This document shows, piece by piece, positions 995-61,493 of a DNA stretch of 64,000 nt. The notes under the pieces were generated by a model. That model did not search any database. It was given only the letters and a program-made list of their open reading frames with translations, and was not told where the DNA came from. The stretch lies in NCBI GenBank assembly GCA_904501735.1, contig CAJGBY010000005.1, forward strand, positions 27,660 through 91,659, read 5' to 3'. The stretch is from an uncultured Muribaculaceae bacterium (lineage in GTDB: Bacteria; Bacteroidota; Bacteroidia; Bacteroidales; Muribaculaceae). The first letter of the stretch is position 1. Each line of letters opens with the position of its first letter. A program made the translations under genes and the position numbers.

Positions 995-1037
995 GAACGG
1001 ACTGCTTCATGGTGAGGCGGTCCGTTCTGTTTTTATT
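995..1037. terminator. Rho-independent terminator between convergent genes
   Basis: GAACGGAC (995-1002) pairs with GTCCGTTC (1020-1027), followed by TGTTTTTATT. It sits between the stop at 969 (+) and the stop at 1046 (-). Confidence 0.6.
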
Positions 1038-1045
1038 AAGTAGAG

Positions 1046-1408
1046 CTAAGAGATATAGTCTTGTCGAGGCATGTTTTGCACGATACGGTGCACCGTAGGT
1101 TTGATTGTGCTGCGTTTTGCGCCCGATAGAGCGCTTATCTCGTCAATGGAGTACCCTTTTATGTATAGAGTGAATATCACGCGTCTATGGGGCTGCATTG
1201 CGTTGTAGGACTTGTGCAGATGATCCAGTTTGACTATTGAATTGCGTCGAGGAGTTGCTACAATTGCTAAACGATTTTTTAATTGAGCAACTTTGGAGGC
1301 GATACAAGAAATTGCGCTGTGGCAATGCCCAACAAAAGATTCTATGCACTCGCTAAACTTTGCGACTACATTGTTCCGATTCAAGGAATGGTGTGTAAAA
1401 CTTTCCAT
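1046..1408 (-). CDS. Small sigma-70 region-4-like HTH protein (no recognisable region 2)
   Basis: The C-terminal 50 aa (PHRRVIFTLYIKGYSIDEISALSGAKRSTIKPTVHRIVQNM) match the ECF sigma region 4 / LuxR-like HTH pattern (R.vf.L....G.S..EIA..lg.s..TvK..l.R). The N-terminal 70 aa show no region-2 motifs, and 120 aa is too short for a full ECF sigma. Confidence 0.4.
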   Translation of the reverse strand: MESFTHHSLNRNNVVAKFSECIESFVGHCHSAISCIASKVAQLKNRLAIVATPRRNSIVKLDHLHKSYNAMQPHRRVIFTLYIKGYSIDEISALSGAKRSTIKPTVHRIVQNMPRQDYIS

Positions 1409-1528
1409 TGTGTAGTGTTTTATGGATATACTCTAATCGTAATACATATAACACAAAACACACCAAAAGTTTCGCTATGAAGTCAAATAAATTTCAAAAT
1501 TTCGATTTCTTAACCCAAGAAAGGCTCA

Positions 1529-2623
1529 TTACCAGCTAAAACATATTCCCGATCGAGGTAAAATAGATTCTTTAGCCTTGAAACAGAAATAATTTATACC
1601 TGATTCCAATTGGTATTTATCCTTTGCGATAGGTAGGAAGGTCATGGTCTTTACTTGGCTTGGATTAATTCCTGTTGAGCCGTCAATAGTAATTCTAAAT
1701 AGTTCAGTATTGGTATCGGATGTAACTAATGTTGGATTTGCAAAAACACAGTAGAATGTATCTGATTCAGGATAGTTATAAGTGCATTTAATTTTACCTT
1801 TGTAACCAGTATATTTCTCCATATGTTCAGCTGATTTAATATCTTCTTTTGGAACTATAGCCGATAAAGTAAAATATTTATAATCAACAGGATATTTTAA
1901 AGTAATATTTTGAACTGATATTGATTTGTTGTTAATAAATAACTCGAATTTAAAAGAAGCTTTAATATTGTTTAATATTTCATTCTTTTTTTGTGTATCA
2001 TCAAGGTTTGTATTCTTTAAGATGTTTAAAATTGTATCTCTTAATGTCGTATCTTTTAATTCTTCTCTAAAAAAGAAAGAATTGTTATTTAGTTGTTTAT
2101 CTAATTCATTTTCTGATAATATAAAGCAACATGTCATCTCAATAGGTTGGGTTGATTGATCCTTAAGGAATAGGCGATGATAGGAGAGTTCTTGAGTTAT
2201 CTGTTTTTGGAAAATAGTTACATTATAGTTGAAATCTTTTTGAATTACATCAAAACAGTTATGTATAAAGTTAGAACAAGTGTCGGCTAATGCAGTATTA
2301 TACCATTTAAGACAATTTCTAAAAACTTGGTCAATAGCCTCTTTCTTGTAGAAGTTCTGAATAAGTCCAACATCTTCAACTTTTAAAACATTTAGCGAGT
2401 TTTCAAGTATTTTTTCATTAATTATTTCATCAACATCCTTCTGTAATGATAAATAATTAGCGATTCGTATTCCGAGATAAGTAAGAAGAGCCAATATAAT
2501 TGTCTCAAGAAGACCTTGAATGAGGTTGTTTTCTACATTTATTAAGCTAATAGCTATTGCAAATAGGCATACAGATATAAGAATCCAATTTTTTTTGAGT
2601 TGTGTTATGGTATTTGTTATCAT
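1529..2623 (-). CDS. Uncharacterised membrane protein: N-terminal 2-TM hairpin plus ~290-aa soluble domain
   Basis: The listed ORF starts at a TTG (2653). The first ATG is at 2623 (MITNTITQLKKNW...), 19 nt after the stop of the upstream dipeptidase gene. There are two hydrophobic helices (ILISVCLFAIAISLINV; LLETIILALLTYLGIRIA). No family is recognised. The gene is very AT-rich. Confidence 0.6.
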   Translation of the reverse strand: MITNTITQLKKNWILISVCLFAIAISLINVENNLIQGLLETIILALLTYLGIRIANYLSLQKDVDEIINEKILENSLNVLKVEDVGLIQNFYKKEAIDQVFRNCLKWYNTALADTCSNFIHNCFDVIQKDFNYNVTIFQKQITQELSYHRLFLKDQSTQPIEMTCCFILSENELDKQLNNNSFFFREELKDTTLRDTILNILKNTNLDDTQKKNEILNNIKASFKFELFINNKSISVQNITLKYPVDYKYFTLSAIVPKEDIKSAEHMEKYTGYKGKIKCTYNYPESDTFYCVFANPTLVTSDTNTELFRITIDGSTGINPSQVKTMTFLPIAKDKYQLESGINYFCFKAKESILPRSGICFSW

Positions 2624-2642
2624 AATTAATGTATATCTAAAG

Positions 2643-3260
2643 TTAGTAATCAAGTAATTTGAATTTGAGTTTGTCTTCTTCCTTTTGGTGATATTGGTAG
2701 TGCCACCATTCGTAAGGATAAGGAAATAAATTATGATTTTTCATTAACTGATAAAGGAATAATCTGTTAGAATACTCCTCTTGAGTTAATAGACCTTTCT
2801 CTAAGAGCTGTTCTTCGTTGCCTACATGAGCGGTATCCTCGAAAGAGTCGTAATCAGTACCCATAGGAAGAAGTTCTCCTTTTGAGTTTACTATTGATAA
2901 ATCAACTGCCATACCATAATTGTGAAATCCTCCTGCATATTCGCCATAAGGATTAGCAACATAACATTCCTTGTTAGTGCCTTTTACAATATCATACATC
3001 TTTTTTTGAATGCTGATAGGGCGTGCAGCATCAAAAATAACTAATGAATAATCGGGATGCAGTTGCTTAAGCTCTAATTGAGCGTCGGATAAAGCATAAG
3101 CTAATTCAGGAACGCAAAAAGCCCCATTGCAATCCTCATAAAGGATTTCACCAGTAAAATTATTTGTAGTTGCGTAGCGAATATCTAATTTAATAGACGG
3201 GCAAATATCTAAGATATTAACCAGTCCCATATCATGATAGAATTCTTCAATTTTTCTCAT
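2643..3260 (-). CDS. D-alanyl-D-alanine dipeptidase, VanX/DdpX family (MEROPS M15D), cytoplasmic
   Basis: Family signatures are present: IDIRYATTNNFTG, FDAARP, GGFHNYGMAVD (HxxGxAxD zinc site) and EWWHY (ExxH). There is no signal peptide. The gene is AT-rich like its neighbours. Confidence 0.8.
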   Translation of the reverse strand: MRKIEEFYHDMGLVNILDICPSIKLDIRYATTNNFTGEILYEDCNGAFCVPELAYALSDAQLELKQLHPDYSLVIFDAARPISIQKKMYDIVKGTNKECYVANPYGEYAGGFHNYGMAVDLSIVNSKGELLPMGTDYDSFEDTAHVGNEEQLLEKGLLTQEEYSNRLFLYQLMKNHNLFPYPYEWWHYQYHQKEEDKLKFKLLDY

Positions 3261-4333
3261 AACAAATATAGAGTTTAGGCAAATCAGATTTTTCTATAAG
3301 CTTTGTTACAAATGTTTCACTAAGTTCTATTTTTTCGTTTTCTTTGGAATGAACAAATGCGTATAAGAACCCCAATTCGCTGTTGGTTAACATTGATTCT
3401 ATTATTCTAATGAAATTGTCTTCTTGGATAAATTTATCTGAGATTTTTTTGTTTTGTTCAATGAAAATTGCAATATTTCGTAGCGATTTAATAATAGGTA
3501 TGTAATAAAATCTAACACCATAAAAACCAATGGATAGTTTTACCCTCTAAAACATATCTTGCGTAGTTTGTGAATAATGTATATGTTTGGGCAAGATAAT
3601 TTAATTCTCGTACTTTAGCAGGTTCTCTAGTGGAATTGACTGAAGAAAGATCCTCTCTGTAATGGATTATTTGTTCTTTCATGTAATTATAATCTACGAT
3701 TGACAAGATATCTTTATAGTGATTATAAATCATATCATTTTCAGAACCGTCATTATCGGAAGTAATACCATTAATCACAAATGACATGGCGATAGATGAA
3801 ATATCAGAAGGGCTCATAGGTGAAGATGTGTTCATATTTATAAATCCCTTGCGAGAGAATAATTCGAAAAGCATTTTGTATTCATAAAACAAGAAATTAA
3901 ACACCTTACTGCCTTTTCCGATATTAGGAATTTCAAAAAGTTGAACACGAGATTCATATCGATTTAATAAAATATTGAATCGATTTTCAAGTCGTTCAGT
4001 TTTAATATCATTTCCTTGTTTAGAATTTATGAGAGCCTGAATAGCAAAAATCAAAATAGTGAAAAGACAACTTGCCATAGCTATCCACATACTCCACCAG
4101 GCTATCTTTATGCTTTTGAAATCAGCAAAATTTCCTATGTTGTTTGTGCTACTATTAGATAAATCTATACGCTCATCAATGATTCTCTCTAATGTACCAA
4201 TCTGATCAAGGAAGGGAAGTTGAGAGATAGAAATGCTGTCGGTGTTTGGCGTATTTTCGGTAGCTAAAATATCTTGACTGAAACAAGCTGATGCTATGGT
4301 AATAAGGAAAATAATAATAATTCGGAGTTTCAT
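3247..4333 (-). pseudogene. putAbiC-like (putative phage abortive infection) 2-TM protein, split by a frameshift at an A5/T5 run
   Basis: The main ORF 4333->3512 (273 aa) has a signal/TM segment, a second TM (IAWWSMWIAMASCLFTILIFAIQALI), then ERLENRFNILLNRYESRVQLFEI...VFNFLFYEY. A second frame stays open from ~3540 to the TGA at 3247-3249. It encodes ...FYYIPIIKSLRNIAIFIEQNKKISDKFIQEDNFIRIIESMLTNSELGFLYAFVHSKENEKIELSETFVTKLIEKSDL, which looks like the family's C-terminus. Deleting one T from the T5 run (forward A5 at 3522-3526) fuses the two frames into a ~356-aa protein. Confidence 0.45.
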
Positions 4334-4336
4334 GAT

Positions 4337-4389
4337 TTTGCCTAAATAATAGTTTAGGCAAATGTACTAAAACTTTCTATTGTATCAAA
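4337..4389 (-). promoter_or_regulatory. Bacteroidetes-type promoter overlapped by a 10-bp inverted repeat (operator-like)
   Basis: On the minus strand: TTTG (4389-4386), 19 nt, TACATTTG (4366-4359). The palindrome TTTGCCTAAA-N6-TTTAGGCAAA (4337-4346 / 4353-4362) overlaps the -7 box and ends 3 nt before the ATG at 4333. Confidence 0.45.
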
Positions 4390-4411
4390 AAAGATTGTAA
4401 TTAATTCTTGG

Positions 4412-5317
4412 TTAGATATGTAGAAACTCAAGTTTTGCTTCGTGGGGGGTGATGTTGAGGGTGGCGGTGGCGCCTTCGATGACAGGGAGGTTGCCGTCGA
4501 TGTGTCCTATTGGGAAATCGAAGCACACTGGGTAGTCATAGGGTTCAATCATGCGGCGTATCATTCCGTACATAGTGTCGCCGTTGGCATCAGGTTCGCG
4601 ATAGTCGGTGAATTGCCCCACAATGAGCCCTTTAAGTCGTTGTAGCACCCCACTAAGTCGCAGATTATAGAGTATGCGCTCCACTTTGTAGATAGGTTCG
4701 GCGATGTCCTCTATAAACAGGATTTTATCGGGAAGAAGTAGGTCGTATTCAGTGCCGATAAGTCCACTCAGAACAGCAAGGTTACCACCAACAATTTCGC
4801 CAGTTACTGAGCCCATGCGGTTAAATGGGTGTGAAGGAGTGGTGTAAGATGGTAGTTGGCCTGTGAGAATGTTGCGCAATGCTTTGTTGCAATGATTATC
4901 GGTGCCGAATAGTGCAAGTTGCTTAGCCATAGAGCTATGGATGCTTGCAATGCCTGCGCGGTGGCACATAGCATGCAGTGCAGAGATATCGCTGAAGCCG
5001 ATAATCCACTTTGGGTGGGTTTTAATTTCGTTGGGAGAGATGAAATCGGTGAGGTGGATGGTTCCGTAACCACCTCTACCACAAAGGATTGCTTTTATCT
5101 CGGGGTCGAAAATTGCTTGTCGGAGGTCGTTGAGGCGTTCTTCGACCGTTCCGCTGTAATATCCCACGCTATTGCGACAATGCTCACTTGGCACTGGCGT
5201 AAACCCCCATTGTTCAAGCACATAGCCAGCCCCGTCGATAAATTCGGGCTTGACGGCGCTGGCTGGCGATACAATCGCTACCTTGTCGCCGGGTTGTAAA
5301 AATGGAGGGGTAAACAT
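4412..5317 (-). CDS. ldcA: LD-carboxypeptidase (muramoyltetrapeptide carboxypeptidase, peptidase S66)
   Basis: LQPGDKVAIVSPAS near the N-terminus, GFSDISALH (nucleophile Ser) and a C-terminal GHxxxNxPxxxG-type motif (PIGHIDGNLPVIEG). Confidence 0.85.
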   Translation of the reverse strand: MFTPPFLQPGDKVAIVSPASAVKPEFIDGAGYVLEQWGFTPVPSEHCRNSVGYYSGTVEERLNDLRQAIFDPEIKAILCGRGGYGTIHLTDFISPNEIKTHPKWIIGFSDISALHAMCHRAGIASIHSSMAKQLALFGTDNHCNKALRNILTGQLPSYTTPSHPFNRMGSVTGEIVGGNLAVLSGLIGTEYDLLLPDKILFIEDIAEPIYKVERILYNLRLSGVLQRLKGLIVGQFTDYREPDANGDTMYGMIRRMIEPYDYPVCFDFPIGHIDGNLPVIEGATATLNITPHEAKLEFLHI

Positions 5318-5342
5318 GGGGTCAAAAATTAAAAAGCGACAA

Positions 5343-6119
5343 TCAACTTACAACAACTTTGATGCCTGCAGCCTCGATGCGTTTTCCGATAGCTTCGAGT
5401 TCGTCCTTTTCCACTTTAGTGAGAGTTTCGACAGGTGTTTTGCGGTCGATAGAATAAATCATCACTTCTTGAGGAGCGATTTCCTTGTAGGCAGCAATAA
5501 GAGCATTGATTTCGGCATCGGTAGTGTTGTCGATTTTCACGCCATTGTGTTCGCCACGCAAGAACATAGTTTGCACGATACACTTGCCATTGAATTGCTT
5601 CAAGTGAGCAATAATACCTTCAGGAATCACATCTTTCGATGTAGGTTGATTGATAGCTCTAAGAGTTGGCGAGAAAGCCGAGTCAAGTTTGAGAATGTTA
5701 TTATCCACTTTTTTGAGTGCTTCCACCACAGAGTCTTTCTTTAGCATAGTGCTATTGCTCAATACGCTCACTTTCGCATTAGGGAAGAAGCGGTCGCGCA
5801 GTTTCATTACATCGAGCACGATGTCTTTGAATTGAGGATGCAGAGTAGGCTCACCATTGCCTGAGAAAGTGATTACATCGAGCGATTCGCCTGCTTCGGT
5901 CATAGCCTTAAGCTTGCGATTGAGGGCTTTTTTCACTGTTTCGCGCGAAGGAATACCACTTTTGCCAGCGCCTTGAGCGTTGAGACCAGCTTCGCAGTAC
6001 ACGCAGTCGAAAGAGCATATTTTGCCATCGTTAGGCATAAGGTTTACGCCGAGCGACACACCAAGTCGGCGGCTATGAATAGGTCCAAATATCGTTTCGT
6101 GAAATAAAACAGTCTGCAT
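5343..6119 (-). CDS. Radical SAM protein
   Basis: GPIHSRRLGVSLGVNLMP...CSFDCVYCE contains the CxxxCxxC cluster motif, and FSGNGEPTLHP is a SAM-binding-like motif. Confidence 0.8.
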   Translation of the reverse strand: MQTVLFHETIFGPIHSRRLGVSLGVNLMPNDGKICSFDCVYCEAGLNAQGAGKSGIPSRETVKKALNRKLKAMTEAGESLDVITFSGNGEPTLHPQFKDIVLDVMKLRDRFFPNAKVSVLSNSTMLKKDSVVEALKKVDNNILKLDSAFSPTLRAINQPTSKDVIPEGIIAHLKQFNGKCIVQTMFLRGEHNGVKIDNTTDAEINALIAAYKEIAPQEVMIYSIDRKTPVETLTKVEKDELEAIGKRIEAAGIKVVVS

Positions 6120-6133
6120 AATGATTGAGATAG

Positions 6134-7375
6134 TTATTTAGCTAATAATTTTTCAAACAAAGATAAGTATTTTTCTACGACGGTGGTTGGAGAGAAGCGT
6201 TTTTGCATCTCGTCGTGTAGGAATTGACGGTCGAGTTTGGCATTTATAGCCCATTCGATACCGTAGGCGAGGTCCTCGTGGCTTTTATACATCGCGATGT
6301 AGCCAGTACGCTTGTGGTCCACGATGTCGCCCTGTCCACCGTTGCCAAATGTTACTGGAGTGCAACCCGCAGCCATTCCCTCGATGAGTGTACCACCAAA
6401 CGATTCGTAAAGCGACGAAGAAATGACAATATCGGCGTGCGCCAACACATCTTTCACACGGTTAGCATCGATTCGACCTAAGAAAGTGTAAGGAATGTCG
6501 ATTTCTTGTAGCAGAGAAATGTCGCGTAATCCTCCGAAAAGAATCAAGTGTATTTTAGACGCTGTTTCGGGCTTGTGAGCCTTGAGCCACTTGAGCGAGC
6601 TGAGCAAGATAGGGAAACCTTTCACTGGGTCATCAAGGCGTGCTGCACCTATTGCTATCACCTTTTTGTCGGCCGATATGCCATAGTTGCTATTAGGCAA
6701 ACGAGAGCAAGAGTATTGCTCGACATTTGTTGTATTAGGGATAACAGTGATGTGCTTATCGCCGAGCAATGAGCTTTCCTTGCACTTTTTCGCAAGCCAA
6801 TTGCTTACCGACACGAAGTGAAGATTAGGAGCCGAAAATATGCTCTTTTTCTTCTTCCACACGCGATGTGAGAGGTCGTTCTCATTGTTTGACGATAGAT
6901 ATTGACACTTTCCACACTCATGCTTGTAGCGAGAGCATTCGTAGGCATGGTGGCATATACCAGTGCATTCCCACATGTCGTGCATGTTCCAGATGATAGG
7001 TTTGCCAGTGTCGCATAGCTTCTCTACACAATCGAGCGATAGTGCTCCTTGGTTGATCCAGTTGAGAATAATCACATCGGCATCTTTCACTGCAGGGTGG
7101 TTGGCGATGTCGCGTCCCCAGTCGGCAGTGTCCACTTTGAACAGATTTTCGCGCGAAAAGCCATTTTGCAAAAATATTTGCAATCGTTCGGCGAGAAAAT
7201 GATACTTATCGGCAATTGTGTCGGCATAGGACACCACATTTTCGTCGTTACCTAATTGTTCGGTAACGAGCATTGATGCATCCACCCCTGCATTGCGAAA
7301 AGCATTCATAAGGCGATAGGTAAATACTGCCGCCCCTCCATTCAAATCGCTTCTGTTGATTATTGCTATTTTCAT
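6134..7375 (-). CDS. Glycosyltransferase family 4-like (GT-B fold)
   Basis: The start is taken at ATG 7375 (MKIAIINRSDLNGGAAVFTYRL), not the listed 7537. The C-terminal half has ESFGGTLIEGMAAGCTPV, the E(x7)E-type motif of GT4 enzymes. A GTTG-N20-TACTTTTG promoter lies just upstream. Confidence 0.8.
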   Translation of the reverse strand: MKIAIINRSDLNGGAAVFTYRLMNAFRNAGVDASMLVTEQLGNDENVVSYADTIADKYHFLAERLQIFLQNGFSRENLFKVDTADWGRDIANHPAVKDADVIILNWINQGALSLDCVEKLCDTGKPIIWNMHDMWECTGICHHAYECSRYKHECGKCQYLSSNNENDLSHRVWKKKKSIFSAPNLHFVSVSNWLAKKCKESSLLGDKHITVIPNTTNVEQYSCSRLPNSNYGISADKKVIAIGAARLDDPVKGFPILLSSLKWLKAHKPETASKIHLILFGGLRDISLLQEIDIPYTFLGRIDANRVKDVLAHADIVISSSLYESFGGTLIEGMAAGCTPVTFGNGGQGDIVDHKRTGYIAMYKSHEDLAYGIEWAINAKLDRQFLHDEMQKRFSPTTVVEKYLSLFEKLLAK

Positions 7376-7391
7376 AATCGTTTTATTACGA

Positions 7392-7423
7392 CAAAAGTAC
7401 ATAATTTTTGGAAATTGGACAAC
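7392..7423 (-). promoter_or_regulatory. Bacteroidetes-type promoter for the GT4 gene
   Basis: On the minus strand: GTTG (7423-7420), 20 nt, TACTTTTG (7399-7392). The -7 box ends about 16 nt upstream of ATG 7375. Confidence 0.4.
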
Positions 7424-7688
7424 CTTTGGCGCGATAGAGGGGTGGTTATAGCTCCAAGCTTTTAGACTGAAGTGCATAAGAACAAAAATAGATGCAGATG
7501 GCGTACCGAAAACTGAAAGCCCAGCATAACAGCTCAATGTAATGCAACCTCGTCGAGGTTGTACCTATACCGGAATAACCTTTCCCTAAGATTCGCTACG
7601 CTCATCATAGGGCTTATATTGACAAACACCCTTCGGGCGTTTAATTCAGTGAGGAGTTAGGAGTTGATGAGTGGTGAATTATTGGGTA

Positions 7689-9065
7689 CTATTTTTCGTT
7701 CCATAATTTTATGGACTTTACCCCCGATCGCACTTCGAGGTATTCGGTGAGTTTTGTTTGTTCGGTGCTGTTCATCGTTCCATTAAGTTTCACGAAAGCA
7801 ATGTTTACGGTGTCGATGTGTCCGCTATTCACCTCGCAAAACACATTACGGCTCAGTGCAATATCCTTCACCTTGGGGAAAAGGATGCGAATTTCGGGAG
7901 CCAGTTGAGGCGAAAGTCGTTCAAATTCCGATTCGCGCGCCAATACCATCTTGAGTGAGTCGATTTGCTCGGCTTGGTTAGCAATTCGTTTTTGGTTGTC
8001 GGCGTAAATCTCGTTAAACATCGACGATGTGATAGCTTTTGAGTCGAGCACATTATTAGCATCGATCGACACGCCCTGTTGAATGGTTAACGAAGCACCA
8101 CGAAGCCATCGATTTTCGTCCATACGCTGAGTCATAGCTATGCGTAACGAATCCACATTGATACGCTCACCGATGAGCGTAACCTTGATGAATTTTTTGC
8201 CGTGTCGCACTCCTGCGTCCTTACTTAGCACTTGAGCGTTGGGAAAAACAAATTGCGTGTTGATAAAACTATTTGCGCTACTGATAAAGTAGCTGTCGCG
8301 CACCATTGTGAAAGTGAGCCACACACTCGGCAATAAAGTTGCAACAATAATAGCAGCAACATAATGTTTCACCTTGTTCTTTATTGCTTCGTTCACGAAA
8401 GTGCGTTGCTTGAAGTGTAAAAATTTCACTCCCACAGTGGTGGCATAGCCTATAAAGATGGAATTTATGAGGAAAAGGTAGAATGCGCCAAAGAAATATT
8501 GCAATTGCCATGTAGCTAATCCGTATCCCGCAGTACACAGTGGAGGCATAAGAGCCGTTGCTATGGCCACGCCAGGTATTACATTGCCCTTTTTCTTGCA
8601 TGCCAGAGCCACGATACCAGCCAATCCACCGAAGAAGCCTATCATCACATCGTAGATGGTGGGCGATGTGCGCGCCAATAGTTCGGAACGCCCTTCGCTC
8701 ACTGGCGAAATGAGGAAAAACAATGTAGAAGCAAGCACACTGAAAGTTGCAGCAATGGCAAGGTTGCGAAACGAGCGCTTGATGAGGTCGAAATCATACA
8801 CACCCAGTCCAAATCCCATGCCAAGAATAGGACCCATGAGAGGCGAAATGAGCATTGCGCCTATGATTACCGCTGCCGAGTTGGTGTTAAGCCCAAGGGA
8901 GGCGATAAAAATGGCAATAATTAGGATTATAATATTAGACCCTTTGAACGACACTCCGTCCATCACAGCTTGCACAGCCGTTTGCTCGTCGTCGAGTTCG
9001 TCGTGAAGGTCAAAATACCCCTTTATGAAGTCTTTTGCCCTATGAAATAAGTTGTCGTTGTTCAT
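7689..9065 (-). CDS. DUF389-family integral membrane protein
   Basis: Multiple TM helices carry the typical DUF389 strings MLISPLMGPI, GFFGGLAGIVA and ALMPPLCTAGYGLA, followed by a C-terminal soluble extension. Confidence 0.75.
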   Translation of the reverse strand: MNNDNLFHRAKDFIKGYFDLHDELDDEQTAVQAVMDGVSFKGSNIIILIIAIFIASLGLNTNSAAVIIGAMLISPLMGPILGMGFGLGVYDFDLIKRSFRNLAIAATFSVLASTLFFLISPVSEGRSELLARTSPTIYDVMIGFFGGLAGIVALACKKKGNVIPGVAIATALMPPLCTAGYGLATWQLQYFFGAFYLFLINSIFIGYATTVGVKFLHFKQRTFVNEAIKNKVKHYVAAIIVATLLPSVWLTFTMVRDSYFISSANSFINTQFVFPNAQVLSKDAGVRHGKKFIKVTLIGERINVDSLRIAMTQRMDENRWLRGASLTIQQGVSIDANNVLDSKAITSSMFNEIYADNQKRIANQAEQIDSLKMVLARESEFERLSPQLAPEIRILFPKVKDIALSRNVFCEVNSGHIDTVNIAFVKLNGTMNSTEQTKLTEYLEVRSGVKSIKLWNEK

Positions 9066-9316
9066 ATTTTTGTAGCATTAACTGTTGTATAAACACCCAA
9101 GAGTCATAAAAATATCTCTTTGAGCAAAAAAATAGTTGGCAAAGGCTTAAGTGGCTATCTCACATTGTTAAGCAATTGAAAATTGGGGTAATTAATTGTC
9201 GGTTTTTTTGCTTATTTGGGAAAGTCTTGCCAATTTTGCAGAAAATATTGGATATTTAATGATTAAAAGCTGCGAGGGCGCGTCCTAATGGGTGTGTCTT
9301 GTGTGGCATATTTGCT

Positions 9317-10114
9317 ATGAATAAGACTTATAAAGGATTTTGGTTGATACTGTTGGTGTCGTTTGTGTTGTTCTTTACACTTTCGGCATTTGACTCATTC
9401 AAAATAGGAGGCATGGAGCTTAAAACATCGGGAATGATAGATCGCTTGACGCGAGTGCCCGAAGGTGTGGAAGCAGAAATTGAGACAGAGCAGGTGAGTG
9501 CCAGTGTGGTGGAAGAAAAGAAGCCACGCGTGATAGACGAAACACCTCAAACAATACTTTTCGTGGGCGACTCGATGCTCGAAGGATTATATCCTCGATT
9601 GGCTGCCTATGCTGCCGAGAATGGCCACACATTGTACTCGGTGATATGGTATAGCTCAACATCGGAAGTGTGGGGTAATTCGACCAAACTTGCCGAATAT
9701 ATCGAGAAGTGCAAGCCAACATATATTTTTGTGTCGCTTGGTGCAAATGAGCTATTTGTGAAGAATATAGCCGAAAAGCGCGATAAATATGTGAAAAATA
9801 TCTTGTCGCAGATAGGTAACATACCATTTGTGTGGATAGGTCCTCCAAACTGGAAACCCGACACAGGTATAAACGACCTTGTGGCGAAGAATGTGAAGCG
9901 TTGCGAAAATGGTTCGTTCTTCGTGTCGAATGGAATGCACTTTGATCGTGCAAAAGATGGAGCGCATCCTACTCGCAAGTCGGCTCGCGCATGGATGGAT
10001 AGTGTGGCACGCTGGATGCCAGCCAATGCAGCTCATCCTATCAAGATGAATCTGCCTAAGGTGGAAACAGCTAAGGCGAAGCGCGTGTTTATGCATCAAC
10101 CTAATGAAAAATAG
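9317..10114 (+). CDS. SGNH/GDSL-type hydrolase or acyl-esterase partner of the MBOAT protein
   Basis: The listed ORF starts at TTG 9299; the first ATG is 9317 (MNKTYKGFWLILLVSFVLFF = signal anchor). ILFVGDSMLEG is the GDS block and SLGANE is the block III-like motif. The MBOAT gene follows 19 nt downstream. Confidence 0.65.
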   Translation: MNKTYKGFWLILLVSFVLFFTLSAFDSFKIGGMELKTSGMIDRLTRVPEGVEAEIETEQVSASVVEEKKPRVIDETPQTILFVGDSMLEGLYPRLAAYAAENGHTLYSVIWYSSTSEVWGNSTKLAEYIEKCKPTYIFVSLGANELFVKNIAEKRDKYVKNILSQIGNIPFVWIGPPNWKPDTGINDLVAKNVKRCENGSFFVSNGMHFDRAKDGAHPTRKSARAWMDSVARWMPANAAHPIKMNLPKVETAKAKRVFMHQPNEK

Positions 10115-10133
10115 TGTGAGGGAGGCTTAAGAA

Positions 10134-11600
10134 ATGGAGTATTTGTGGCATAATATATGTGAACTGTTCTCGTATCAGAAAGATGCACCAATGATTTTCT
10201 CGTCGGGAATCTTTTGGGTGATTTTTTTGATGTTTTTGCCAATATATGCAGCATTGAAGGATAAGCGCAAGCAGATGCTTGTGTTTGTGGTAGCATTCAG
10301 TTTGTACTTTTATTACAAATCGAGTGGATTGTTCTTCTTGCTGTTGGTATGTACCTCGTTGCTCGACTGGACATTGTCGCGCGTGTTGGTGAAACTGCGC
10401 TCAAAAGCGGCACAAAAGCTATGTGTGGCTGTGTCGGTTGTAACATCGTTGAGCATATTAGGTTATTTTAAGTATGCTAATTTCTTCCTATGGAACTGGA
10501 ATGAGATGGTGGGAGGCAATTTTCAGCCGCTCGACATCATATTGCCTGTGGGAATTTCGTTCTACACATTCCAGTCGATAAGCTATATCGTAGATGTGTA
10601 TAAGGGTAGAGTTCAACCCACTTCGTCATGGCTTGAATATGCATTTTTCCTATCGTTCTTCCCTGCGCTGGTGGCAGGTCCTATAGTGCGTGCCGATTAT
10701 TTCATTCCACAAATCAAGGAAAATCGTAGTGCGACACGCGATGAGGTGTATTTCGGCTTTTGGCTCATTATACTCGGTATCATAAAGAAGTCGCTTATTG
10801 CCGACTACATTTCGCAATATAACGACTTGATATTCTCGTCGCCAACAGGTTACACAGGCTTCGAGAGCCTTATGGGTGTGATAGGTTACACAATGCAAAT
10901 CTATTGCGACTTCTCGGGTTATTCTGATATGGCAATAGGTATAGCGTTGATTATGGGCTTCAAGCTAAGTGCAAACTTCGATTTTCCATATAAATCGACC
11001 AACCTCACTGAATTTTGGCGTAGATGGCACATCTCGCTATCGTCGTGGTTGCGCGATTATGTGTATATCCCACTTGGCGGTAACCGTAAAGGCACAGCTC
11101 GCACTTATATCAACAATTTCTTGACGATGCTTATAGGTGGATTGTGGCATGGTGCAGCATGGAAATTTGTGTTTTGGGGTGCAATGCATGGCGCAGGCTT
11201 GGCAGTGCATAAAGCATCGAAACCATGGCTCGACAGATTGCCTAATAATTGGCTTGTGCGATCGGTGTCGTGGATTGTAACAATGGTGTTTGTGTCGTTC
11301 TTGTGGGTATTCTTCCGTGCCGATTCGTGGACCGATTCGTGGTTGATTGTAAAAAATATTGTTACTAATTTCAATTTCGCCTACATACCAGTGTTTATGC
11401 AAGTGCGCTATGTGTGGTGCATAATGATGGCTGTGATAATGGTGGCTCATGCAGTGCCATCGCGTTGGTGGACATCGTTGGGCAATATTTTTGTGCGTTC
11501 ACATTGGGTAGTGAAACTGGTTGTGTTTGTGGTGGTAGTGCAATTAGTGATACAATTCATGAGTGAAGAAGTGTCGCCATTCATATACTTCCAATTTTAG
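10134..11600 (+). CDS. MBOAT-family membrane-bound O-acyltransferase (AlgI/DltB/PatA-like)
   Basis: About 10 TM helices. Family motifs are present: FWRRWHISLSSWLRDYVYIPLGGNR and GGLWHGAAW (catalytic His region). Confidence 0.9.
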   Translation: MEYLWHNICELFSYQKDAPMIFSSGIFWVIFLMFLPIYAALKDKRKQMLVFVVAFSLYFYYKSSGLFFLLLVCTSLLDWTLSRVLVKLRSKAAQKLCVAVSVVTSLSILGYFKYANFFLWNWNEMVGGNFQPLDIILPVGISFYTFQSISYIVDVYKGRVQPTSSWLEYAFFLSFFPALVAGPIVRADYFIPQIKENRSATRDEVYFGFWLIILGIIKKSLIADYISQYNDLIFSSPTGYTGFESLMGVIGYTMQIYCDFSGYSDMAIGIALIMGFKLSANFDFPYKSTNLTEFWRRWHISLSSWLRDYVYIPLGGNRKGTARTYINNFLTMLIGGLWHGAAWKFVFWGAMHGAGLAVHKASKPWLDRLPNNWLVRSVSWIVTMVFVSFLWVFFRADSWTDSWLIVKNIVTNFNFAYIPVFMQVRYVWCIMMAVIMVAHAVPSRWWTSLGNIFVRSHWVVKLVVFVVVVQLVIQFMSEEVSPFIYFQF

Positions 11601-11656
11601 GCAAATGTTAGTTGAAGAAGTGTAAAAATCGGTGAAAAGACGAAAACAATAGAATT

Positions 11657-11746
11657 ATGGACAAACATAGATTTGATAAGATATATATTGCGCTCACAGT
11701 CATCATAGTGTTGGCAGTGGCGATACTTATTTGGAATAATAAGTGA
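11657..11746 (+). CDS. Possible 29-aa single-TM micropeptide downstream of the MBOAT gene
   Basis: ATG 11657 ... TGA 11744-11746 encodes MDKHRFDKIYIALTVIIVLAVAILIWNNK, with one clean hydrophobic helix. It is too short for the ORF track and has no other support. Confidence 0.25.
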   Translation: MDKHRFDKIYIALTVIIVLAVAILIWNNK

Positions 11747-11830
11747 AATTGTGTATTTTTGTGCAAAAATATAGGCAAAAGGGCGTTGATTTAAGGTTTT
11801 TCGCCCGATTGTCGGCTAAAGAGATATTAT

Positions 11831-12967
11831 ATGGCAATTGTAATCAAACAAATTTCAACTACTAACAGCGAACTTGAAAAGTTTGTTGATTTTGGTATCA
11901 ACCTTTATAAAGGCAATCCTTACTATGTTCCAGCGCTTGTGATGGACGAAATAGGCACACTATCGCCAAAGAAAAATCCAGCATTCGATTTCTGTGAATC
12001 AGCTTATTTCATGGCATACGATGAAGCTACAGGCAAGCCAGTGGGACGCATCGCAGGTATTATCAATAATGTTACCAACAAAAAATATAACGAACGCCAT
12101 GTGCGCTTCGGATTTGTTGATTTTATCGACGATAAAGAGGTGAGTAAGGCGCTTATCGGTGCTGTAGAAAACTGGGGTAAGTCAAAAGGTATGGACACTA
12201 TTGTAGGTCCTCTTGGCTTCACTGATATGGATCCAGAAGGTATGCTTATCGAAGGTTTCGACCAAGTGGGTACAATGGCAACTATCTATAACTATCCTTA
12301 TTATCCTCAACATCTTGAGGCTCTTGGCTTCGAACAAGAAATCGACTGGATGGAATTCAAGATTATGATTCCTAATTCTATCCCTGAAAAGATGGCTCGC
12401 ATTGCCGACATCGTTCGTAAGAAGTACAAACTATCAACTCCAAAATATACAAGCGCAAAGAAGCTTATTGCCGACTATGGTGAAGCAATCTTTACACTTA
12501 TCAACGAGGCTTACGACCCTCTATATGGCTATTCACCACTTACACAAAAGCAAATCGACCACTACATCAAGATGTATGTGCCAATTTTGCGTCTTGAAAA
12601 TGTGTGTTTGATCACTGAAGAAAGTGGCGAATTGATCGGTGTGGGTATCACATTGCCTTCAATGTCGAAAGCTTTGCAAAAGTCGGGCGGACGCCTATTC
12701 CCATTCGGATGGTGGCACATGCTTAAGGCTTTGCGTGGCAAGAACGAGATTGTGGACTTGATGCTTGTGGCTGTTAAGCCTGAATATCAAAGCAAGGGTG
12801 TGAATGCATTGCTATTCACTGAACTTATCCCTGCATTCAATGGCAATGGTTATGTGTATGCCGAAAGTAACCCAGAGCTTGAATTGAACCAAAAGGTACA
12901 ATCACAATGGCAATACTTTGACACTACTCAACACAAACGCCGCCGCGCTTTCAAGAAGAAAATCTAA
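11831..12967 (+). CDS. GNAT-fold acyltransferase-like protein (function unknown)
   Basis: 378 aa. RIAGIINN...HVRFGFVDFIDD, PLGFTDMDPEGMLIEGFD and LVAVKPEYQSKGVNALL (Q/RxxGxG/A-like acyl-CoA loop) resemble a conserved Bacteroidota family usually annotated as GNAT N-acetyltransferase. Confidence 0.5.
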   Translation: MAIVIKQISTTNSELEKFVDFGINLYKGNPYYVPALVMDEIGTLSPKKNPAFDFCESAYFMAYDEATGKPVGRIAGIINNVTNKKYNERHVRFGFVDFIDDKEVSKALIGAVENWGKSKGMDTIVGPLGFTDMDPEGMLIEGFDQVGTMATIYNYPYYPQHLEALGFEQEIDWMEFKIMIPNSIPEKMARIADIVRKKYKLSTPKYTSAKKLIADYGEAIFTLINEAYDPLYGYSPLTQKQIDHYIKMYVPILRLENVCLITEESGELIGVGITLPSMSKALQKSGGRLFPFGWWHMLKALRGKNEIVDLMLVAVKPEYQSKGVNALLFTELIPAFNGNGYVYAESNPELELNQKVQSQWQYFDTTQHKRRRAFKKKI

Positions 12968-38486: not shown

Positions 38487-38569
38487 GGGTAGGTAGGTAA
38501 GTGGTTAAAACGGGCAGACTGTAAATCTGTTGGCTTGCGCCTTCGGCGGTTCGAATCCGTCCCTGCCCA
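38487..38569 (+). tRNA. tRNA-Tyr (anticodon GTA)
   Basis: Acceptor GGGTAGG / CCTGCCC (one G-U pair) with discriminator A. Anticodon arm GCAGA-CTGTAAA-TCTGT. Long variable arm and T arm GGCGG-TTCGAAT-CCGTC. The D stem pairs weakly in my hand fold (G10-G25). CCA is not encoded. Confidence 0.85.
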
Positions 38570-38579
38570 CTTAATTTTC

Positions 38580-38652
38580 GCGGAAGTAGCTCAGTTGATA
38601 GAGCATCAGCCTTCCAAGCTGAGGGTCGCGAGTTTGAGCCTCGTCTTCCGCT
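38580..38652 (+). tRNA. tRNA-Gly (anticodon TCC)
   Basis: Acceptor GCGGAAG / CTTCCGC with discriminator T. D arm GCTC-AGTTGATA-GAGC, anticodon arm TCAGC-CTTCCAA-GCTGA, T arm GCGAG-TTTGAGC-CTCGT. Confidence 0.9.
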
Positions 38653-38668
38653 CAAACAACAAGACAAA

Positions 38669-61227: not shown

Positions 61228-61493
61228 AAAATTAGAGGAATTAAGGTTTGGATGGGTATAAAACAAAAAAAAATTGGTTATCTCACGACAACCAATCTTA
61301 ATTAACCTTAAATCTAATACCATGAAAAACACATTGCAAATATACTAAGGATTTTTGACATGGCAATACAAATTTTAGGGAAAATATCAGTGATTAATAT
61401 TCTTTAACTAAAATTCAAAAAGTGAAACATTTCGCTCTTTTTTCGTTGCTCTTTATGGGGTGAGAATTATATGTTTTAGATGTGAAAAAAATA

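Follow-up and report, generated by a model that had tools for sequence, protein, structure and literature searches.

A VanX-Type Dipeptidase Coupled to a New Family of Predicted Membrane Proteins in Gut and Rumen Bacteroidales

Introduction

Dipeptidases of the VanX type are known in three settings: glycopeptide resistance, producer immunity, and scavenging under starvation. Their substrate, D-Ala-D-Ala, is what MurF needs to complete the peptidoglycan precursor. The subject of this report is a gene for such an enzyme within a 64-kb window (the whole stretch of 64,000 nucleotides analyzed here, from contig CAJGBY010000005.1 of an uncultured Muribaculaceae bacterium), where it sits between two genes for predicted membrane proteins. 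The three genes, called g1, g2, and g3, had been read in an initial annotation of this DNA as a candidate defense or suicide cassette. Our analysis points instead to a composite of two independent accessory elements: a two-gene module made up of the dipeptidase gene g2 and its partner g3, and a separate gene, g1, that was inserted later. Dipeptidases of the M15D (VanX/DdpX) type are themselves known; what is new here is their pairing with an obligate membrane partner of a new family. This adds a fourth architecture for VanX-type dipeptidases, always coupled and sometimes fused to a membrane-anchored protein, and the coupled unit spreads through Bacteroidales of the gut and rumen as a cassette of just these two genes.

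The closest described enzyme is VanX, encoded in the vanA and vanB operons of Enterococcus. Like g2, VanX is a single-domain cytoplasmic zinc dipeptidase of about 200 residues, and the catalytic residues are common to both. It is the best PDB match by sequence (1r44) and by fold (E = 2.6e-11, TM score 0.68 on the target). The two differ in their company, as VanX has no partner with two transmembrane (2-TM) helices while g2 is always coupled to one. In addition, g2 comes without vanH, vanA, vanR, or vanS, and its host is a Gram-negative member of the Bacteroidales. More broadly, none of the parts of a van cluster (a D-Ala-D-Lac or D-Ala-D-Ser ligase, a dehydrogenase or racemase, VanRS) was found in the window or in the related loci.

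A second point of comparison is DdpX of E. coli, which belongs to the ddp operon and scavenges D-Ala-D-Ala in stationary phase. DdpX is cytoplasmic, comes from a Gram-negative host, has a role other than resistance, and provides the best NCBIfam model for g2. However, an ABC dipeptide transporter accompanies DdpX, whereas g2 is linked to a 2-TM β-sandwich protein and is not a DdpX orthologue; no transporter adjoins the g2-g3 pair in any locus examined. The secreted M15 proteins of Bacteroides and Prevotella belong to the same family and show comparable similarity to g2 (phmmer E = 6e-59 and 5e-52), but they carry N-terminal signal peptides and lack a g3 neighbor, neither of which is true of g2. 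PcgL of Salmonella belongs with these secreted M15 dipeptidases.

The Dipeptidase and Its Membrane Partner

In the window, the three genes lie on the minus strand in an AT-rich island, behind a single promoter.

g1: 4333 to 3512 (273 aa), with a second frame running on to 3247, minus strand; weakly putAbiC-like membrane protein, frameshifted
g2: 3260 to 2643, minus strand; predicted cytoplasmic M15D (VanX/DdpX-type) zinc dipeptidase, 205 aa
g3: 2623 to 1529, minus strand; 2-TM protein, 364 aa from its ATG
Promoter: 4359 to 4389, minus strand; Bacteroidetes-type, TTTG-N19-TACATTTG, ahead of g1-g2-g3 here
AT-rich island: 1409 to 4411; 30.4% GC against 43.0% for the whole window and 44 to 50% for the flanks

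The first two genes overlap by 14 nt (3247 to 3260) and the last two are separated by 19 nt (2624 to 2642), a layout that the initial annotation had described correctly, promoter included.

Of these genes, g2 and g3 form a conserved and obligate two-gene unit. An M15 gene directly adjoins the g3 homologue in all 10 lineages that are informative, that is, for which flanking DNA is available (adjacency is seen in the window species and in loci L011, L013, L014, L016, L020 to L024, L025, L027, and L029). Identity to the g3 of the window is 56% in L011, 45% in L013, and 27% in L014, and the order of the genes is g2 then g3 in seven lineages and g3 then g2 in two. The two halves are also found as natural fusions, P0039 (609 aa) and P0042 (581 aa), both of which are ordered 2-TM segment, β-sandwich, M15 domain. 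The M15 domain of the fusion has VanX as its best PDB fold match. A model of the fusion, built on a shallow M15 alignment, has a predicted TM score (pTM) of 0.70. Every g3-linked M15 lacks a signal peptide, whereas the stand-alone M15s of Bacteroides finegoldii and of a Prevotella sp. carry signal peptides and have no g3 neighbor. Co-conservation of the dipeptidase with the 2-TM protein in other genomes, which had been put forward as a check on the initial annotation, is thus borne out in both gene orders and in fused form.

The catalytic half of the module would be g2, which is predicted to be a cytoplasmic D-Ala-D-Ala dipeptidase. It scores 77.7 bits against the Pfam family Peptidase_M15 (PF01427, cut-off 27), covering profile positions 3 to 188 of 199, and it aligns over its full length with VanX (1r44, E = 1.4e-11) with the DAARP, HNYGMAVD, and EWWH motifs in place. 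The M15D residues are all kept: the zinc ligands of the His-x6-Asp motif and a distal His, the catalytic Glu of E-x-x-H, and the substrate Arg of DAARP. No signal peptide is present, so that the earlier description of a full VanX signature in a protein without an export signal holds. Across the g3-linked or fused M15s, DAARP, HNYGxAxD, and EWWH are invariant (10 of 10). Among the NCBIfam models, DdpX is the best match (PRK10178, E = 6.9e-26) at 91 bits against an equivalog cut-off of 176, and the VanX model gives 63 bits against a cut-off of 320. Since g2 falls below both of these cut-offs, it represents a distinct M15D subfamily. Near-identical copies of the pair at NCBI, from a Muribaculaceae bacterium metagenome-assembled genome (MAG), are labeled "M15 family metallopeptidase" for g2 (MBQ4917987.1) and "hypothetical protein" for g3 (MBQ4917988.1).

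The partner, g3, is made up of two transmembrane helices followed by about 290 residues, as had been noted from its sequence. An AlphaFold2 model based on an alignment of 48 sequences (predicted local distance difference test, pLDDT, 90.2; pTM 0.79) contains a 2-TM hairpin at about residues 12 to 55, with the second helix running into a long stalk, then a small helical bundle and a β-sandwich (residues 126 to 363). By hydropathy, 43 of the 48 family members have exactly two transmembrane segments. Lysine and arginine residues across the family number 176 in the N-terminal flank, 51 in the 11-residue loop, and 108 in the C-terminal flank, which by the positive-inside rule indicates that both termini face inward and hence that the g3 sandwich, as well as the M15 domain in the fusions, would be cytoplasmic. 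Motifs of the family include FFREE, FYCVFxNPT, and a C-terminal PRSGIxFxW.

By sequence, g3 founds a protein family without a Pfam model. The protein itself has no match in Pfam, NCBIfam, PHROGs, PADLOC, or the PDB sequences, the 48 family members share no Pfam domain, and a profile search of the PDB sequences returned nothing. A profile search of 1.84 billion representatives recovered 70 clusters at 50% identity, 53 of them with E < 1e-10, where a word-indexed search had found only four. By fold, Foldseek aligned the soluble domain with the N-domain of M1 aminopeptidases, OST1/ribophorin, the VIT domain of ITIH, and BDI_1141 over some 270 columns (E of about 1e-5, probability 1.0), but with TM scores of only about 0.3, root-mean-square deviations of 5 to 7 Å, and identities of 6 to 10%. 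The best of these, the M1 N-domain, is a resemblance in fold only and implies no sequence relationship. Where such domains occur in peptidases, as in the M1 aminopeptidases and BDI_1141, they are noncatalytic accessories packed against the catalytic domain, a parallel to the g3-M15 fusions that suggests a gating or substrate-shaping role for g3. The parallel has its limits, as the catalytic partner in M1 aminopeptidases is a thermolysin-like M1 domain and the partner of g3 is an M15.

Shortened variants of g2 (118 and 73 aa) and of g3 (321, 157, 97, and 75 aa) occur on long contigs, as do shortened variants of g1 (189 to 280 aa), and suggest that all three genes decay in some strains.

Horizontal Movement of the Pair

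The island that holds the three genes is the lowest-GC 3-kb stretch in the window. GC content is 30.5% in g1, 34.8% in g2, and 28.5% in g3, with 23 to 29% at third codon positions (GC3), against 49.8% in ldcA on one side and 45.9% in the gene for a type IX secretion system (T9SS) cargo protein on the other. The initial annotation had contrasted an AT-rich block with flanks of about 45 to 50% GC and had taken the block for horizontally acquired accessory DNA, and its composition is indeed foreign. Neither an integrase nor a transposase is encoded within 12 kb of the island, which also agrees with the earlier observation. Comparison across loci extends this picture, as in 9 of 11 cases the GC content of the module is clearly below that of the remaining locus, with only L020 and L027 being host-like. 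GC fractions for the nine are as follows.

L011: module 0.296, rest of locus 0.387
L013: module 0.289, rest of locus 0.380
L014: module 0.374, rest of locus 0.481
L016: module 0.395, rest of locus 0.617
L017: module 0.385, rest of locus 0.563
L025: module 0.366, rest of locus 0.490
L026: module 0.308, rest of locus 0.394
L029: module 0.293, rest of locus 0.397
L039: module 0.418, rest of locus 0.477

L016 (CAMWNB010000029.1, positions 7845 to 11898) comes from an uncultured Porphyromonadaceae MAG; here a pair of 39.5% GC has sufB on one side and sufC on the other, and the genome as a whole is at about 62% GC.

The pair seems to travel with its own promoter. Matches to TTTG-N17-21-TAnnTTTG number 9 in the window against 1.8 expected, and a promoter sequence identical to that of the window lies directly 5' of g2 in three loci that lack g1 (L001, L011, and L013). 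The promoter would drive g1-g2-g3 in the window and g2-g3 directly where g1 is absent. Its type, together with a FopS small RNA elsewhere in the window, assigns this DNA to the Bacteroidota. Scans for sigma-70 promoters and intrinsic terminators gave results at chance level inside the island.

Evidence for exchange between species comes from the related locus L011. Its flanking genes are 73 to 85% identical in protein sequence to those of the window species, with a proportion of synonymous differences (pS) of 0.73 to 0.88, close to saturation. By comparison, g2 is 94% identical with a pS of 0.38. For g3, the first 100 residues have a pS of 0.45, and the remainder has a pS of 0.70 and a nonsynonymous divergence (dN) of 0.43. 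Between L011 and L013 the mosaic in g3 is reversed. The low pS relative to the flanks indicates that the segment spanning the promoter, g2, and the 5' part of g3 was exchanged between species after the flanks had diverged, and that g3 alleles were swapped. An AT-rich codon bias may deflate pS somewhat, but not by the margin seen. Taken together, these comparisons show that the pair is horizontally mobile within the Bacteroidales, traveling as a bare AT-rich unit of about 1.8 kb with its own promoter, and that it recombines between species.

The searches for carriers gave a sparse distribution. An alignment-based search for related loci returned a single GTDB genome, the Porphyromonadaceae MAG of L016, and a search with a narrow alignment returned one metagenome locus and no viral contig with the pair. 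When plasmids and phages were searched with the fusion by tblastn, only its M15 half was matched, by ordinary ddpX or vanX genes and by secreted Bacteroidales M15s without g3; the pair was not found on plasmid or phage records or on viral contigs. An exact-match look-up of LdcA retrieved near-identical contigs only and was uninformative about strains without the pair.

Genomic Neighborhoods and Possible Roles

The surroundings of the pair vary widely and are listed below.

Window and, probably, L013: ldcA
L011: ldcA deleted except for about 15 nt; Eco47II restriction-modification system and Phd antitoxin at a distance of a few kb
L016: sufB and sufC
L014: GH97
L020 (also L021 to L024), 3887 to 9018: tight overlapping operon of acyltransferase (zinc ribbon), 361-aa protein, patatin, g3, and M15; host-like composition
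L029: lipid A deacylase, M48 protease, M15, g3
L017, 5090 to 5998, minus strand, and L018, 1276 to 2184, minus strand: HTH_11-WYL-WCX regulator (BrxR/CapW architecture), divergent from the fusion gene P0039
L039: sugar and alcohol metabolism genes
L027: PBP1a, hydrolase, murF, ddl, g3, M15, prmC; gaps of 4 to 8 nt; host-like GC

The 361-aa protein of the L020 operon has no family match. In L011, the Eco47II-type restriction enzyme and DNA methylase (2044 to 4034) and a fragment of a PhdYeFM-type antitoxin (6977 to 7231) are set among the same housekeeping genes as in the window, and this syntenic neighborhood is apparently a hotspot where accessory genes collect.

An enzyme of peptidoglycan-precursor synthesis or recycling is the immediate neighbor in 2 of the 11 loci, and an envelope-related gene in 4. 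We judge such neighbors to be more frequent than chance would give. One such case is L027, where murF, ddl, and the pair share a transcription unit and the ligase scores 333 bits to the Ddl subfamily model and falls under every Van ligase cut-off, as expected of an ordinary Ddl. This locus also lends support to the mundane alternative that accompanied the initial annotation, namely that an acquired peptidoglycan-recycling gene happens to sit beside ldcA.

The role that we slightly favor, giving it a little under an even chance, is accessory control or salvage of the cell-wall precursor pool. Since some bacteria encode both proteins as a single polypeptide, g2 and g3 would work as one machine, probably as a complex at the inner face of the inner membrane. 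There, g3 may tether g2 and gate it, so that the complex would act as a switchable sink for D-Ala-D-Ala and possibly for the D-Ala-D-Ala end of membrane-bound precursors. Removal of D-Ala-D-Ala would throttle the MurF step, for example to hold back the supply of precursor when cells are stressed or starved. As ddl is co-transcribed with the pair in L027, the dipeptidase would have to be active only conditionally. If the module does control precursor supply, it would represent a new regulatory point at the Ddl-MurF step in the Muribaculaceae, which are abundant gut bacteria.

Several considerations weigh against a role in precursor control. We infer the physical interaction of g2 with g3 from linkage and fusion only. 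The cell-wall context comes from 2 to 4 of the 11 loci, and adjacency to ldcA is lost in the close relative L011, where that gene is deleted. A constitutive cytoplasmic D-Ala-D-Ala dipeptidase beside Ddl would run a futile cycle, and the model therefore needs a hypothetical regulatory step. Strong mobility together with rarity (about 70 clusters among 1.84 billion), the mosaic evolution of g3 with truncated variants of both genes, and the WYL/HTH regulator divergent from one fusion gene would each suit conflict genes equally well or better.

Second in standing is a new abortive-infection or antiphage system made up of g2 and g3 without g1, which we consider unlikely, though well worth keeping in mind. 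Under this proposal, g3 would sense infection, through membrane perturbation or a phage protein, and unleash g2; destruction of D-Ala-D-Ala would then halt lipid II synthesis and lead to arrest or premature lysis. The module is AT-rich and mobile and is found at unrelated sites, including the suf operon, its distribution is rare and patchy, and some strains hold truncated alleles. Next to a conserved g2, a fast-diverging and mosaic g3 makes a sensor-like pattern, and in L017 and L018 a BrxR/CapW-like HTH-WYL-WCX regulator is transcribed divergently from the fusion gene. In this genus the locus also gathers a putAbiC-like gene, an Eco47II restriction-modification system, and a Phd antitoxin. 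The one related observation found in the literature is a Dub-seq screen in which overexpressed ddpX of E. coli made cells resistant to phage N4 (PMC7553319).

Set against this, defense-type genes lie within 10 kb in only about 3 of the 11 loci (the putAbiC-like g1, the L011 restriction-modification system with Phd, and the L017 WYL regulator), which is roughly background in a sample too small for statistics; the remaining neighbors are housekeeping genes. The L027 pair has a host-like composition in its murF-ddl transcription unit, the pair is missing from the phage, plasmid, and viral sequences searched, and killing through precursor depletion would be slow. PADLOC-DB v2 has no match for g2, g3, the g3 and M15 of L020, or the fusion P0039, and literature searches gave no report of a dipeptidase-based defense system or of similar gene content, in agreement with the initial annotation, which knew of no described defense system with these genes. 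Were the proposal true, this would be the first conflict system to act by depletion of a peptidoglycan precursor, adding to strategies that deplete NAD+, dNTPs, or ATP. Under both proposals, the g3 family, confidently folded but without a Pfam model, acquires a specific functional link that can be tested.

The dipeptidase is found at the same locus and with the same AT-rich composition in two related species (L011 and L013), an outcome that the initial annotation had itself named as counting against its defense proposal.

Two further explanations are both improbable, and to a similar degree. In the first, the pair would be an addiction module of the toxin-antitoxin kind, with the dipeptidase as toxin and the membrane protein as its inhibitor, which would explain how it persists and spreads without mobility genes. 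The unit is compact, has its own promoter, and has genes that sometimes overlap, its enzyme is potentially lethal, and its insertions look selfish. Nevertheless, known antitoxins do not resemble a 364-aa 2-TM protein, the two halves also occur as stable fusions, truncated g3 alleles apparently survive in some strains, and searches of profile libraries gave no similarity to toxin-antitoxin families. In the second, the pair would provide acquired resistance or proofreading, either by hydrolyzing aberrant or antibiotic-mimicking D-Ala-D-X or by remodeling stem-peptide termini in the manner of VanX, VanXY, and DdcY, and susceptibility to cell-wall-active compounds would change accordingly. The VanX family is known for such a role, the pair adjoins ddl and murF in L027, and it is horizontally mobile, but no alternative ligase, VanH-type dehydrogenase, or two-component regulator stands beside it in any locus, and the L027 ligase scores as an ordinary Ddl.

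A Separate, Weakly putAbiC-Like Insertion

The remaining gene of the block, g1, is a separate accessory element, inserted later in a minority of strains and standing outside the conserved module. It occupies an insertion of 1079 bp in the 5' untranslated region (UTR) of g2, bounded by a 13-bp direct repeat, and the junction carries a further inverted repeat.

Direct repeat ATTTGCCTAAACT, upstream copy: 4351 to 4363, minus strand; overlaps the -7 box
Direct repeat ATTTGCCTAAACT, downstream copy: 3272 to 3284, minus strand; within the 3' end of g1, just 5' of the g2 start
Inverted repeat TTGCCTAAA / TTTAGGCAA, 9 bp with a 6-nt loop: 4338 to 4361, minus strand; between the -7 box and the g1 start

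The direct repeat is exact, with 1079 bp between equivalent positions of its copies, and loci without g1 join window position 4363 to 3284 precisely across it. As the upstream copy overlaps the -7 box, the insertion placed g1 between the promoter and g2, and g1-bearing strains have a single promoter for all three genes. The inverted repeat is perfect and is found only where g1 is inserted, being absent from the g1-less junctions of L001, L011, and L013. It was made by the insertion junction itself, and it could serve as an operator, a hairpin in the 5' UTR, or a recombination site.

Contigs that encode an identical g2 protein differ in their g1 content. Five lack g1 (L001, L002, L004, L005, and L009), and here 72 nt separate ldcA from g2, while L006 and L010 have an intact g1 of 361 aa and L003 and L007 have the frameshifted form seen in the window. 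The syntenic locus of the two related species (L011 and L013) has the g1-less junction, which indicates that absence of g1 is the ancestral state. The frameshift consists of one extra T in the run at 3522 to 3526 (T5 here against T4 in the intact L006 copy), and g1 is thus a predicted pseudogene in the window. Variants of g2 and g3 are found on hundreds of contigs and each g1 variant on at most 7; in contig counts, g1 is about ten-fold rarer than g2 and g3. A search of 5.8 billion proteins for g1 homologues gave a single cluster, P0078, at 65% identity. P0078 is solitary, lying in an island of 29% GC between two acyltransferase genes with no dipeptidase nearby.

The resemblance of g1 to an abortive-infection family, noted in the initial annotation, is marginal. 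Against the putAbiC family (PF16872, cut-off 22 bits), the second-frame fragment in the window scores 22.6, just over the cut-off, but intact g1 (18.2) and P0078 (15.8) fall below it. The aligned part is the same in g1 and P0078, covering model positions 11 to 61 of 80 near the C-terminus of the protein. Compared with putAbiC proteins and lactococcal AbiC, g1 has at most a weak C-terminal similarity, with the intact proteins under the cut-off, and it is joined to a dipeptidase pair only in some strains of the window species. PADLOC, its Abi models included, gave no match to g1 (E <= 0.1-1), and NCBIfam and PHROGs gave nothing useful. The JGI label for intact g1, "NADH:ubiquinone oxidoreductase subunit 3", looks spurious. 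The possibility that g1 and g3 are paralogues was considered and rejected, as they have no significant similarity beyond the transmembrane segment.

A single co-evolved defense or suicide cassette of all three genes, suggested by the shared promoter of g1-bearing strains and the 14-nt overlap of g1 with g2, is very improbable and is already contradicted by the bounded insertion, by the absence of g1 from many conspecific contigs, both related species, and all other g2-g3 loci, by its ten-fold rarity, and by its state as a pseudogene with a solitary homologue. An Abi-like gene next door can evidently make two unrelated accessory elements resemble one operon.

Other Features of the Window

Just 3' of g3 is an open reading frame (ORF) of 120 aa (1046 to 1408, minus strand) whose sole domain is a sigma-70 region-4 helix-turn-helix (PF08281, 27.4 bits). 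Its counterparts by position in L011 and L013 are 28 to 32% identical to it and 81% identical to each other, and the genes that flank it are 73 to 85% identical across the same comparison. Gene callers leave the ORF uncalled in some conspecific contigs (L008 and L009), where the DNA is 99% identical. It was rejected as a part of the module: at 43.5% GC it falls outside the AT-rich block, and the other g2-g3 loci do not have it. A GC-rich hairpin of 15 pairs followed by a T-tract (995 to 1027, plus strand) is found just 3' of the T9SS cargo gene and is likely to be an intrinsic terminator that separates the cargo gene from the 120-aa ORF, which is convergent with it.

Further away, two more short patches of low GC (33 to 37%) lie at 9000 to 9450 and 11550 to 12000 in intergenic or gene-end positions. 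Genes for tRNA-Tyr(GTA) and tRNA-Gly(TCC) stand side by side at 38487 to 38653 on the plus strand, and a small RNA of the Bacteroidetes FopS family (RF04319, 79.3 bits against a gathering score of 56) is encoded at 61264 to 61332 on the minus strand.

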